NCBI GenBank assembly: GCA_029202665.1
Contig: CP119326.1
Coordinates: 589,092-653,091 of the forward strand
Length of the DNA: 64,000 bases
Source: Candidatus Brevundimonas colombiensis
GTDB taxonomy: Bacteria > Pseudomonadota > Alphaproteobacteria > Caulobacterales > Caulobacteraceae
Reading direction: 5' to 3'
The position numbers were made by a program, and so were the translations under genes. Numbering within the stretch: the stretch's first letter is position 1; the number at the start of each line of letters is the position of its first letter. Positions 28,597-46,836 of this stretch are shown piece after piece. Below the pieces are notes generated by a model. The model made no database searches, was not told where the DNA came from, and saw only the letters and a program-made list of their open reading frames with translations.

Positions 28597-29769
28597 ATGA
28601 CGACGCCGCGCCTGCCCCCGCCCGCCAGCTTCTCCGCCGCCGCCGTGGCCACCGTCATCGGCTTCGGCGGCACGGTCGCTCTGGTCGTCCAGGCGGGTCA
28701 GGTGCTGGGGGCCAGCCCCAACCAGATCATTTCGATGGTGACGGCCCTGTGTCTGGGCATCGGCCTGCCGGGGATGCTGCTGAGCTGGCGGTTCAGGATG
28801 CCGGTCGTGCTGGCCTGGTCGACGCCGGGTGCGGCTCTGCTGGCGGCCTCCACGCTGGGTCTGGGGTGGGCCAACGCCGTCGGGGCCTTCGTGTTTGCGG
28901 CCCTGTTGATGGTGCTGACGGGGCTGCTACCCGTGTTGGGGCGGCTGGCGCAGAGGATACCGGCATCCGTGGCCTCGGCCATGCTGGCGGGCGTGCTGCT
29001 GCCGTTCGTGCTGAGGTTGTTCAAGGTCGCGCCGGAAGAGATGGGCCTGGCGGTCGGACTGCTGGCCGTCTTCATCGTCACGCGGCGGATCTGGCCCGCC
29101 TGGGCCCTGCCTGCCGTGCTGGTCGTCGCCTTTGCGGCGCTGGGTTTCAGGGGGGAGATCGGCCTGCCGCCGGGGACAGGCTTGTTCGGCGGTCTGTCCC
29201 CGGTCATGCCCGCCTTCGACTGGACAGTCGCGGTCAGCCTGGGTCTGCCGTTGTTTCTGGTCACCCTGGCCTCGCAAAACCTGCCGGGACTGGTGGTGTT
29301 AAGAGCCGCCGGATATGAGCCGTCCGCCAACCGCCTGATCTTCGCCACAGGCCTGACCAGCCTGATCGCGGCTCCGTTCGGGGCCCACGGCGTCAATCTG
29401 GCCGCCATCACCGCCGCCATATGCACCGGGCCGGACGCCCATCCTGATCCAGCGAAACGATGGATTGTCGGGGTCATCTATGGTGGGTTTTATGTGGTGG
29501 TGGCGCTGTTCGCGGCGCCTCTGGCCGGACTGTTCATAGCCATGCCGCCTGCGGTGCTGGCGATCATAACGGGCTTGGCCCTGATCGCCGCCCTGACCGG
29601 GGCGCTGGGGGCCATGCTGGCCAAGCCGGACGAGCGGGAGGCGGCCGTCCTGACCTTCGCCGCCACGGGATCGGGCGTCGCCCTGTTCGGGATCGGCTCC
29701 GCCTTCTGGGGGCTGGTCGTGGGGTTCGCCGCCCTGGCGGCGATGCGCTGGATCAGACCGACGGCCTGA
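28597..29769 (+). CDS. benE: BenE family benzoate/H+ symporter
   Basis: PVVLAWSTPGAALL, ASAMLAGVLLPF, LASQNLPG, NLAAITAAIC, IGSAFWGL. Confidence 0.9.
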   Translation: MTTPRLPPPASFSAAAVATVIGFGGTVALVVQAGQVLGASPNQIISMVTALCLGIGLPGMLLSWRFRMPVVLAWSTPGAALLAASTLGLGWANAVGAFVFAALLMVLTGLLPVLGRLAQRIPASVASAMLAGVLLPFVLRLFKVAPEEMGLAVGLLAVFIVTRRIWPAWALPAVLVVAFAALGFRGEIGLPPGTGLFGGLSPVMPAFDWTVAVSLGLPLFLVTLASQNLPGLVVLRAAGYEPSANRLIFATGLTSLIAAPFGAHGVNLAAITAAICTGPDAHPDPAKRWIVGVIYGGFYVVVALFAAPLAGLFIAMPPAVLAIITGLALIAALTGALGAMLAKPDEREAAVLTFAATGSGVALFGIGSAFWGLVVGFAALAAMRWIRPTA

Positions 29770-29787
29770 CCCAGCGTCGCTTCTTTC

Positions 29788-30052
29788 TTTGGCCTACCGC
29801 GCTCCGCGCTGCTTGAGGCCGGCTATTTGGCCTACCGCGCTTCGCGCTGCTTGAGGCCGGCTATTTGGCCTACCGCGCTTCGCGCTGCTTGAGGCCGGCT
29901 ATTTGGCCTACCGCGCTTCGCGCTGCTTGAGGCCGGCTATTTGGCCTACCGCGCTTCGCGCTGCTTGAGGCCGGCTATTTGGCCTACCGCGCTTCGCGCT
30001 GCTTGAGGCCGACTATTTGGCCTACCGCGCTTCGCGCTGCTTGAGGCCGGCT
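29788..30052. repeat. Tandem array of 7 x 38-bp structured repeat (no spacers)
   Basis: Unit TTTGGCCTACCGCGCTTCGCGCTGCTTGAGGCCGGCTA starting at 29788, 29826, 29864, 29902, 29940, 29978 and 30016; single substitutions in copies 1 and 6. Confidence 0.97.
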
Positions 30053-30432
30053 TAGTCGCGCAGCGAGGCCGGGACCTGGCCGCCGTTTTCGGCCAGCTTG
30101 CGCCAGACCGCCTTGGACAGGGCGATGTTCTGTTCGGCCGAGCCGTGTTCCCCAGCGTGGACGTTAAGCTCCTCGGCCAGTTCCTTGCGGGCAGACAGGC
30201 TGGAATCGAGGTCGAGCAGCTTCAGCAGATCGACGATCGAGGTGCGCCAGTTGCCGCCGCCGCCCTTGTTGGCCGCCAGACCGCTCAGAACGGCTTCGAC
30301 GTCGACAGGCGGCAGGGCCGCGGGCGCAGCAGTCGGCGCAGCGCCTGCCGGCGCGGCGGTCGGTGCAGGGGCCGGAGCCGCCGCAGGCTTGTGGTTGGTG
30401 ATCTTGTTCCAGATCGAAGAGAAGATGCCCAT
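30052..30432 (-). CDS. DUF3597 family protein
   Basis: MGIFSSIWNKI, Ala/Pro linker, VDVEAVL, NWRTSIVDLLKLLDLDSSLSARKELA. Confidence 0.88.
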   Translation of the reverse strand: MGIFSSIWNKITNHKPAAAPAPAPTAAPAGAAPTAAPAALPPVDVEAVLSGLAANKGGGGNWRTSIVDLLKLLDLDSSLSARKELAEELNVHAGEHGSAEQNIALSKAVWRKLAENGGQVPASLRD

Positions 30433-30463: not shown

Positions 30464-30488
30464 AACGCAACCGGAACAGTATGGTTCA
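30464..30488 (-). promoter_or_regulatory. SigT/EcfG-type promoter for the DUF3597 gene
   Basis: TGAAC-N16-CGTT on the minus strand; the -35 overlaps the GST stop codon. Confidence 0.6.
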
Positions 30489-32153: not shown

Positions 32154-32705
32154 TTAGCCTTCGGCCTTTTCCTCGGTGGCTTCGGCAGCCGGAGCCTCTT
32201 CAGCGGCGACGTCAGCGGCCGGGGCCTCTTCGGCAGGGACGTCTTCAGCAGCGGGGGCGTTCTTGGCGGCTTCGGCGGCGGCGGCGGCCTCTTCCTTGGC
32301 GCGGGCGGCGGCTTCAGCGGCCTCGACCTTGGCGGCGGCTTCGGCTTCCAGGCGGTCGGCTTCGCGCTGGGCGCGCTCGGCGGCGCGCTCTTGCGCCTTC
32401 TTGCCGGGCTGGGCCTTGTTCGGGTTGTTGGACTGGGTCCACTTGACCTTCTGGCCCAGGGTCTCGTCCTGCGACAGGAAGCGAGCGACGCGGTCGGTCG
32501 GCTGGGCGCCCTTGCCGAGCCATTCGGCGATGCGTTCAACCTTCAGTGCGACGCGCGGCTGGGCGCCGTCCTTGGGCAGCATCGGGTTGTAGGAGCCGAC
32601 CTTCTCGATGAACTTGCCGTCGCGGGGCGAGTGCGAGTCGGCGACGACGATGTGGTAGTAGGGGCGCTTCTTGGCGCCGCCGCGGGCCAGACGAATCTTC
32701 AGCAT
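32154..32705 (-). CDS. rpsP: 30S ribosomal protein S16 with Ala/Glu-rich C-terminal extension
   Basis: [47 protein letters not shown]. Confidence 0.97.
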
Positions 32706-34370: not shown

Positions 34371-34380
34371 TCCTTTTTGC

Positions 34381-34450
34381 GGGCTATCGGCCTTGCGGCC
34401 TGCTTGAGCCCGAGAGGGCTGTGCTCAAGCAGCGCGAAGCGCGGTAGCAC
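34381..34450. repeat. Inverted pair of variants of the 38-bp-array element
   Basis: GGGC-TATCG-GCCTTGCGGC-CTGCTTGA-GCCC (+, 34381-34411) and GTGC-TACCG-CGCTTCGCG-CTGCTTGA-GCAC (-, 34450-34421). Confidence 0.85.
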
Positions 34451-34671
34451 GACAAAAAAGCTGTCGTGTGGGTGGAGACGCGAGGTTCACTTGCGTCGGA
34501 AGCGGCGGCTTATGAAGGAAAACAGGCGAGAAGGCAACCACGGCGAGTCAATCGCGCTATAAGCCCGGTGCGCGCCAAGGCATTTAGCGGATTGTCATCA
34601 TCGTGCTAAGAGCCGCGCCCTTTATAGGGGCGGCGTTGTCGCCAGGGTTTCAGACTTCGGGAGAAGCACGA

Positions 34672-45494: not shown

Positions 45495-45519
45495 AACGAC
45501 GCCGTCTGGCGGCGGTTCC
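45495..45519 (-). promoter_or_regulatory. SigT/EcfG promoter of the sRNA
   Basis: GGAAC-N16-CGTT. Confidence 0.85.
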
Positions 45520-46494: not shown

Positions 46495-46519
46495 AACGTA
46501 TCATATCGGTCGCGGTTCC
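46495..46519 (-). promoter_or_regulatory. SigT/EcfG promoter of phyR
   Basis: GGAAC-N16-CGTT. Confidence 0.85.
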
Positions 46520-46560
46520 CCAGATTACATCAAGCTTGAGCATAAAATCTCCTGAAGGCA

Positions 46561-46585
46561 GGAACCGCCGGGCAAGGATGGCGTT
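46561..46585 (+). promoter_or_regulatory. SigT/EcfG promoter of nepR-sigT
   Basis: GGAAC-N16-CGTT. Confidence 0.85.
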
Positions 46586-46632
46586 AAGCGCTGGCATCTC
46601 TGCGACGACGTTGGGTGGGCCTTGTTCTGTCT

Positions 46633-46836
46633 ATGATTGATTCTATCGACTCCTCGCGCGCCCCGGGCGCAGACACCAAAGGGGAGGCCGGCCTCGAAGA
46701 AGCGCGTCTTCGCCAACAGGCCATCGGCGTGAAGCTGCGGCATATGTTCGACGAGGTCGTCAACGAACCGGTCCCCGACGAGTTCCTGGAAATCCTGAAG
46801 CGCGCCGACGCCAAGGCTGCGGAAAGCCCCGCATGA
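46633..46836 (+). CDS. nepR: Anti-sigma factor NepR
   Basis: AIGVKLRHMFDEVVNEPVPDEFLEIL; overlaps the sigT start by 4 nt. Confidence 0.93.
   Translation: MIDSIDSSRAPGADTKGEAGLEEARLRQQAIGVKLRHMFDEVVNEPVPDEFLEILKRADAKAAESPA

Follow-up and report, generated by a model that had tools for sequence, protein, structure and literature searches.

A tandem array of a dispersed REP-like hairpin repeat between convergent BenE and DUF3597 genes in Brevundimonas

The analyzed window is a stretch of 64,000 nucleotides (G000:C1:589092-653091) of the single-contig, 3.30-Mb genome of Candidatus Brevundimonas colombiensis (66.8% GC, 99.98% complete), and the relatives of the flanking genes place this host in the vesicularis/nasdae clade of Brevundimonas. 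At the locus studied here, a gene for a BenE-family membrane transporter and a DUF3597 gene are convergent, and the gap between them is filled by a tandem array of a short structured unit (Table 1). Tandem Repeats Finder (TRF) reported this array on the forward strand with a period of 38, 7.0 copies, 98% matches, no indels and a score of 516, which makes it by far the strongest tandem array of the 64-kb window. It starts 18 bp after the BenE stop codon, and at its other end the TAA stop codon of DUF3597 (complement 30052-30054) shares one base, 30052, with the end of copy 7. The DUF3597 mRNA would carry the array as its reverse-complement form, from 3 nt past the stop codon. The BenE stop codon lies within a weak hairpin (CGACG-N11-CGTCG) upstream of the T-rich leader preceding the first unit, and a scan for intrinsic terminators detected no terminator-like site in 29788-30052 on either strand.

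An earlier note, made from the letters of this DNA alone, had described seven head-to-tail copies, a single substitution in each of copies 1 and 6, and a position between convergent genes with the array touching the DUF3597 stop codon. All of this agrees with the present results: the TRF consensus is identical to that of the note, both substitutions were located (29804 and 30012), and the Pfam gene calls together with the one-base overlap confirm the position. The note had also called DUF3597 sigmaT-promoted. Here, a promoter-like motif was found about 30 nt upstream of the start of the gene, and its form, TGAAC-N16-CGTT, recurs in the window at 45495 (GsrN) and at 46495-46785 (stress locus). 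Since this form is common to the promoters of GsrN and of the stress locus, an EcfG/sigmaT-type promoter for DUF3597 is plausible, and the claim stands in that weaker version.

Table 1. Positions of the array, its flanking genes and other copies of the repeat. Bare numbers are positions in the window; those preceded by C1 are positions in the contig of the host genome (G000).
Feature	Position	Strand	Basis
BenE-family membrane transporter gene	28597-29769	+	Pfam PF03594, E 4.8e-109
T-rich leader TTCTTTCTTT, directly 5' of unit 1	29781-29790	+	sequence
Seven head-to-tail 38-bp units, TTTGGCCTACCGCGCTTCGCGCTGCTTGAGGCCGGCTA	29788-30052	+	TRF and sequence
Composition of each unit: 30-nt two-tier hairpin element and 8-nt linker GGCTATTT	within 29788-30052	+	
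Variant T>C, apical loop TCC for TTC, edge copy 1	29804	+	sequence
Variant G>A, linker of copy 6 = GGCCGACTA	30012	+	sequence
DUF3597 gene	30052-30432	-	Pfam PF12200, E 5.9e-41
EcfG/sigmaT-type promoter-like motif TGAAC-N16-CGTT	30464-30487	-	pattern search
Second family site in the window, outer GGGC/GCCC, inner GGCC-TTGC-GGCC	34377-34414 (C1:623468-623505)	+	model R1, E 3e-9
Its inverted partner, outer GTGC/GCAC	34418-34454 (C1:623509-623545)	-	model R1, E 9e-11; exact core match
Array B, 12 copies, period 40, linker ATCGTTGTGT	C1:667822-668298 (L104:1323-1799)		
Three-copy array of the element	C1:1095775-1095887		
Three diverged copies	C1:2921093-2921211		
Copy in anti-Shine-Dalgarno context, rpmI	C1:1435129		
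Further copies in anti-Shine-Dalgarno context	C1:1395119, 962201, 799343, 1095851		
Sites of the subfamily with a longer inner hairpin	C1:1435427-1435468, 378896, 1165379, 1715908, 2343449, 1123264, 1395119, 1098291, 328685, 1011535		

Every unit of the array scored 54-58 bits with a covariance model of the element (R1), and the units abut through an identical 8-nt linker. A CRISPR array was also considered and excluded, since unique spacers of similar length are absent between the units. The 24-mer core occurs eight times in the window, as against 0.00 occurrences expected by chance. The TCC loop variant of copy 1 marks the final copy of the 12-copy array B as well, and edge copies that escape homogenization in this way are typical of arrays evolving by slippage or unequal exchange. 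Repeats of another kind were seen on the minus strand at 32154-32705 of the window, where an ORF for an S16-like ribosomal protein has a long Ala/Glu/Lys-rich C-terminal extension coded by imperfect tandem repeats of 15-33 bp (TRF rows 32180-32348).

The element itself is about 30 nt long and is built from two stems, a 5-bp outer one (GGCCU/AGGCC) and a 4-bp inner one (GCGC/GCGC) that is mostly closed by a UUC loop. Its asymmetric internal loop is near-invariant (5' A-Y-C, 3' UGCUUG), and the invariant letters, CTAYC and TGCTTGA, are unpaired; unpaired TGCTTGA is present in 54 of 75 distinct copies and CTTGA in 70. The outer stem occurs as GGCC, GCGC, GGGC/GCCC, GTGC/GCAC or GTCC/GGAC, and the inner stem as GCGC, GCCC/GGGC, GGCC or GCTC/GAGC. 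Among 17 distinct paralogues, 98% of cells are paired versus 83% in shuffles, and changes on both sides of a stem occur in 16 cells versus 4. In addition, C-G to U-A switches in the inner helix were found in seven and five species among 18 orthologues from the rpmI leader, and a compensatory change in the outer stem distinguishes this genome from its closest relative (G002) at one orthologous site. Folding of a single unit is not more stable than that of shuffled sequence (z -0.5 and -1.4); the same is true of the whole array on the plus strand (z -0.1), and the minus strand folds weakly better than shuffles (z -2.4). Because thermodynamic stability does not exceed that of shuffles, the case for structure rests on covariation, and the sequence comparison supports two stems maintained by compensatory changes, namely the outer GGCCT/AGGCC stem and the inner GCGC-TTC-GCGC hairpin that had previously been proposed and are also predicted for the unit. 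Stem pairs comprise 586 Watson-Crick, 6 G-U and 8 A-C pairs; the last two counts assign no strand and do not distinguish a DNA hairpin from an RNA hairpin.

Copies of the element are dispersed throughout the genome. A search with the core gave 30 matches versus 0 in the control, a structure-aware pattern identified 37-39 copies at 17 loci versus 0-1 in reversed-genome controls, and R1 gave 58 matches; the family is put at about 40-58 copies at 17-30 loci of the 3.3-Mb genome. These counts, together with the covarying stems, uphold the proposal of a dispersed, structured REP-like family. Among the 17 strict loci, 11 are singlets, and the multi-copy loci are direct repeats of 2, 2, 3, 7 and 12 copies and one inverted pair. 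Several further pairs are also present, and the two copies at the second site in the window stand tail to tail. Array B lies about 49 kb downstream of the array between BenE and DUF3597; its neighbors are a small conserved ORF (ending in VALIFSIFS*) past a PhaR-like gene and an uncharacterized 200-aa gene whose stop codon is 3 nt away. Decay of a copy can be seen at C1:1835400-1835426, where one intact copy is accompanied by an internally deleted remnant (TTGGCC followed by CACTTGAGGTC); the orthologous site of G002 (L196:2170-2260) has two intact copies.

A subfamily with a longer inner hairpin keeps the outer stem and the internal-loop letters (for example, CTATCG-TTCGCCGCGCGGCGGCTCA-CTGTTTGAG) and adds about ten copies in this genome, and a BLAST search with one of them returned dozens of matches per genome across Brevundimonas. 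Rfam 15 gave no match over the array or over the pair at 34377-34454 at E-values up to 5, and no Rfam match was found over the rpmI leader copy. Papers were searched for the motif and for Brevundimonas repeats of REP type, and only chance primer matches and mentions of rep-PCR came up.

Most copies follow directly after a T-rich tract of the host. When 75 distinct copies are read in the plus form, the preceding ten bases are 44-74% T, versus about 17% T genome-wide at 67% GC. The host provides this T-rich flank in three unrelated ways: through the U-tract of canonical terminators (C1:953475, 1100411, 2051903, 2154275, 2421092 and 2921093, and likewise a conserved site of the diminuta group), through the complement of the Shine-Dalgarno sequence and start codon of a divergent gene, and, at array B, through the T-rich last codons of the small ORF. 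This would favor a positional or target preference of the element. However, at the BenE/DUF3597 gap, sites that are empty in other species have no T-rich leader, which fits co-insertion of the leader over target preference.

Based on crude, GC3-based gene calls, the intergenic regions of 48 loci were classed as convergent (18), co-directional (26) or divergent (4); the family avoids divergent promoter regions, which is a REP-like pattern. With respect to transcription, the reverse-complement form is in raw excess (20 vs 6), and about 10 vs 6 independent co-directional sites remain when orthologous copies are counted once, which is no significant bias. With respect to replication, no bias was observed (16 vs 16).

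We also compared copy numbers between species at orthologous sites. The BenE/DUF3597 gap has no copy in five cases (L021, L026, L028, L048 and L046, B. vesicularis NBRC 12165), where only 19-45 bp and no terminator separate the two stop codons. It has one copy in L023, L025 and the metagenome contig L112, two diverged copies in L022 and L027, four diverged copies in L045, and seven near-identical copies in this genome. The linkers at this gap are homologous between species (GTCTCTTT, GCCTCTGT, ATCTATTT and GGCTATTT, with GYCTCTKT as a degenerate form beside ATCTATTT and GGCTATTT) and resemble the final bases of the T-rich leader, so the duplicated piece was the element plus part of the leader. 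Array B similarly has 0, 1, 2, 3 (in G002, the closest relative) or 12 copies (here), and array C has one copy in G002 versus three here. Linkers are identical inside each array and different between arrays, variant units are located at or near array edges, and other species have arrays of 2-5 units with periods of 37-40 bp. The copy-number series and the homologous linkers indicate that the arrays grew in place by tandem duplication and not by repeated insertion. A recent local amplification had been suggested by the earlier note, and the comparison supports local and fairly recent growth; the suggested VNTR-type variability is seen as a difference between species (0, 1, 2, 4 or 7 copies at the BenE/DUF3597 gap). 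At the same gap, B. nasdae JCM 11415 (L024:3700-3870) lacks the hairpin element and contains another palindromic, MITE-like insert of about 150 bp (CGTCATTCCGGGGC…GCCCCGGAATGACG), and insertions appear to recur in this short space between the converging genes.

Members of the family were looked for and found in all of the 36 sampled Brevundimonas species, with 2-61 matches per genome and typically about 20-60 copies. Within Caulobacteraceae, 7 of 27 genera have matches, and many copies are present only in Brevundimonas and one sister genus; across the order Caulobacterales, matches occur in 5 of 45 genera. A 2.4-Mb low-GC genome from another family of the order (G052) contains 110 matches, versus 1 in its congener G189. 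The copies of G052 keep the invariant letters (T-tract, GTCC/GGAC or GCGC stems, CTAYCG, a small hairpin and CTACTTGAG), and 37-bp head-to-tail runs of the element are also found there. The family had been described as lineage-specific, which holds only approximately, given its abundance in Brevundimonas and the sister genus on the one hand and the 110 copies of G052 on the other.

Three observations were made on the larger sequences in which copies are embedded. In G052 (L152, L154, L157 and L160), many copies form the middle of a larger, roughly 100-bp repeat whose ends are inverted (GCATTTTTAGCAAAAGTGGGAAGGTTTTTTTG[element]GGGTTTTGCGGCCAAAAATGCGACAGATAAAGATTT), which looks like a composite, MITE-like unit. 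Brevundimonas sp. CEF1 (G147) has four copies of a repeat of more than 800 bp (C1:1327700, 2445300, 3639100 and 739900; L105-L108), which contains two elements 330 bp apart and follows another palindromic repeat, CCTTCTCCCCTTGCGGGAGAAGGTGGC…GCCACCTTCTCCCGCAAGGGGAGAAGG; this long repeat may represent a repeated leader or a mobile element's non-coding end. In three IMG/VR contigs of about 70% GC, copies lie in phage- or GTA-like structural modules (L113:1764-1800, L114:488-524 and L115:6289-6325), one directly after a major head protein gene (phrog_3437) and another between the tail protein genes phrog_394 and phrog_376. Such modules are a possible route between lineages, or the hairpin may be used inside these operons.

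Taken as a whole, the array is probably the product of local tandem amplification of one copy of a dispersed REP-like hairpin repeat that has no tie to RAYT. One copy entered the 19-45 bp gap in an ancestor shared by some species of the vesicularis/nasdae clade. Duplication in place of the element and part of its T-rich leader then gave the 1, 2, 4 and 7 copies seen in different species; growth may have proceeded by replication slippage or by unequal exchange between the direct repeats, a process that the hairpins probably assisted. By analogy with known repeats of this kind, the hairpin stack, 3 nt past the DUF3597 stop codon and 18 nt past the BenE stop codon, may shield both mRNA 3' ends from 3' exonucleases, and, in a gap that has no canonical terminator, it may reduce read-through from either converging gene. 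A hairpin so close to the DUF3597 stop codon could also interfere with translation termination.

Some copies are conserved between species. In about 24 of 29 species, the sense strand upstream of rpmI has the reverse-complement form of the element, placed after a conserved leader and before the Shine-Dalgarno sequence; the internal-loop letters are conserved amid a scrambled neighboring spacer, and in four species a plain hairpin replaces the element. At least 12 species of the diminuta group retain an inverted pair following a bidirectional terminator, and copies are present 3' of both tuf genes. The rpmI 5' UTR and terminator-adjacent orthologous copies indicate that at least some copies are under selection, and a role in the host would explain the conserved copies at least as well as purely selfish spread. 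Upstream of rpmI (L35), a stretch of about 55 nt, GCGCCTTCGCGTACCGAACCGCCGGGCGAACAGGCATGCCTGGGCGGTTC, is itself strongly conserved (L116:230-300, that is, G000:C1:1435030-1435100; orthologues in L121-L149); it matches no Rfam family and is probably a ribosomal-protein leader.

The main rival explanation, which is favored by these conserved sites and which we think rather unlikely, is that the element is primarily a host-functional structured module, acting as RNA or single-stranded DNA, whose internal loop is read by a conserved cellular protein. Copies would then be retained in the untranslated regions at both ends of mRNAs because they serve stability, processing or the control of translation, and the array would be a selected multi-hairpin insulator or stabilizer between convergent genes that lack a terminator. 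Besides the rpmI leader with its four plain-hairpin species, the diminuta-group pair and the tuf copies, the explanation gains from the persistence of the invariant letters in the low-GC genome of another family and from the empty orthologous gaps, which are only 19-45 bp long and have no terminator. However, the element has a patchy distribution with bursts in copy number (G052 has 110 copies and its congener 1), most Caulobacteraceae genera are without it, and its presence varies at orthologous sites among close relatives. Moreover, a transcript-borne module receives no support from orientation relative to transcription or from the stems, in which G-U pairs do not outnumber A-C pairs, and the added copies of the array bring nothing obvious beyond the first hairpin. 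The mobile repeat and the host module are not exclusive, since some copies of a mobile repeat can be co-opted.

A classical REP/REPIN family spread by a RAYT (TnpA-REP) Y1 transposase, as favored in the earlier note, would share several features with the element, which is a short, imperfect, extragenic palindrome in many copies, forms some tail-to-tail inverted pairs and carries GTAG on the minus strand of the array; tandem REP arrays are also known (PMC3116915). Nevertheless, a profile search detected no PF01797 (Y1 HUH transposase, RAYT) in this 99.98%-complete genome. Only two of 61 Brevundimonas genomes encode it (it is absent from the other 59), and in both of these no element lies within 1.5 kb of the Y1 gene. 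PF01797 is also absent from the copy-rich genomes G052 (110 copies), G147 (67) and G112 (53), as well as from G122 and G130, and the control genomes of the search scored as expected. In REPs, a conserved GTAG lies 5' of the hairpin foot and is needed for binding and cleavage by TnpA-REP (PMC3479197); the corresponding tetranucleotide here, on the minus strand, is GTAG in 37 of 75 distinct copies (49%), ATAG in 24 and other in 14, and it is located between the inner hairpin and the outer 3' arm. A GTAG signature of the family is not supported. In addition, most loci are singlets or direct repeats, and no replication-strand bias is present, and we regard a RAYT-driven family as very improbable. 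An IS91-type rolling-circle element, a class with CTTG/GTTC-adjacent ends, was examined as well, prompted by the similarity of the invariant CTTG to the nick or target sites of such elements. Its Y2 transposase (PF04986) is absent from G000, G052, G112 and nine other genomes and present in 2 of 14; it is unrelated to copy number, and this candidate was rejected. Neither a Y1 (RAYT/IS200) nor a Y2 (IS91) transposase accounts for the dispersal of the family.

It is highly doubtful that the seven copies are an assembly artefact of a true locus with one or two: although perfect short tandem repeats are prone to assembly error, the genome is a single 3.30-Mb contig of 99.98% completeness, two variant copies anchor the array, and independent assemblies of other species show arrays of the 2-, 4-, 5- and 12-copy type whose copies differ by point mutations.

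The preferred reading, local amplification of a RAYT-independent repeat, places the family close to the REP, BIME and REPIN sequences of enterobacteria and pseudomonads. Like them, it consists of short GC-rich imperfect palindromes in tens to hundreds of extragenic copies, mainly at gene 3' ends and in convergent gaps, with a conserved mismatched internal loop and covarying stems, and it would have similar consequences for mRNA 3'-end stability and read-through. It also shares their occasional ordered tandem arrays with flanking sequence, which are known in Pseudomonas fluorescens SBW25 (PMC3116915). Unlike REPs and REPINs, the Brevundimonas element occurs in genomes without RAYT or another Y1 transposase, and its GTAG varies between copies and does not precede the hairpin foot on the 5' side. 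Its units are mostly singlets or direct repeats, whereas inverted doublets predominate in REPINs. A consistent T-rich tract on one side is a further difference, and the motif persists in two families of the order, a wider range than the single species or genus that is usual for a REP family. With intrinsic terminators, the element shares a GC-rich hairpin beside a T-rich tract at gene ends, and many copies directly adjoin real terminators; however, its T-tract lies 5' of the hairpin and not 3', and its internal loop is conserved in sequence, which terminators do not need.

The mycobacterial MIRU-VNTR loci offer a second parallel, with a short unit at a few dozen intergenic loci, some of them spacerless head-to-tail arrays, and with copy numbers that differ between relatives, so that such loci could be VNTR markers. 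MIRUs are reportedly 40-100 bp long (Supply et al. 1997), located inside operons, with small reading frames that overlap the neighboring genes. The Brevundimonas unit, by contrast, forms a hairpin with covarying stems, its periods of 38 and 40 bp are not multiples of three, which does not suit a MIRU-type frame coupled to the flanking genes, and its large arrays are found in convergent gaps. With tandem REP arrays on record (PMC3116915) and a near parallel in MIRU-type VNTRs, the array itself is ordinary for such repeats. Taken alone it matters little: it could be used for typing strains, and it may have a tuning effect on the 3' ends of its two neighbors, a general-stress gene and a transporter gene.

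The family is of broader interest. Some chance, though a small one, is given to the element being the substrate of a new nuclease or recombinase, or of a host nucleic-acid-binding protein, neither Y1 nor Y2, that would read the CTAYC / TGCTTGA loop and place or maintain the hairpin directly 3' of oligo-T tracts. If true, this would account for the same letters in two Caulobacterales families of very different GC, for burst-like copy numbers (110 versus 1 in one genus) and for the copies in phage or GTA modules, which could carry the element between lineages; some copies, such as that of the rpmI leader, would have been taken over as working mRNA parts.

Regardless of how the element spreads, the family is a clean and easily modeled REP-like repeat that persists and amplifies without RAYT in its copy-rich carriers, stands at a well-defined place beside T-tracts, has the same internal-loop letters in two families of an order, and includes orthologous copies conserved genus-wide, one of them in a ribosomal-protein leader. 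A covariance model of the element could improve the annotation of Brevundimonas intergenic regions, and the family provides a tractable system for the spread of REP-like repeats without a known enzyme and for the way in which repeats become functional parts of transcripts.
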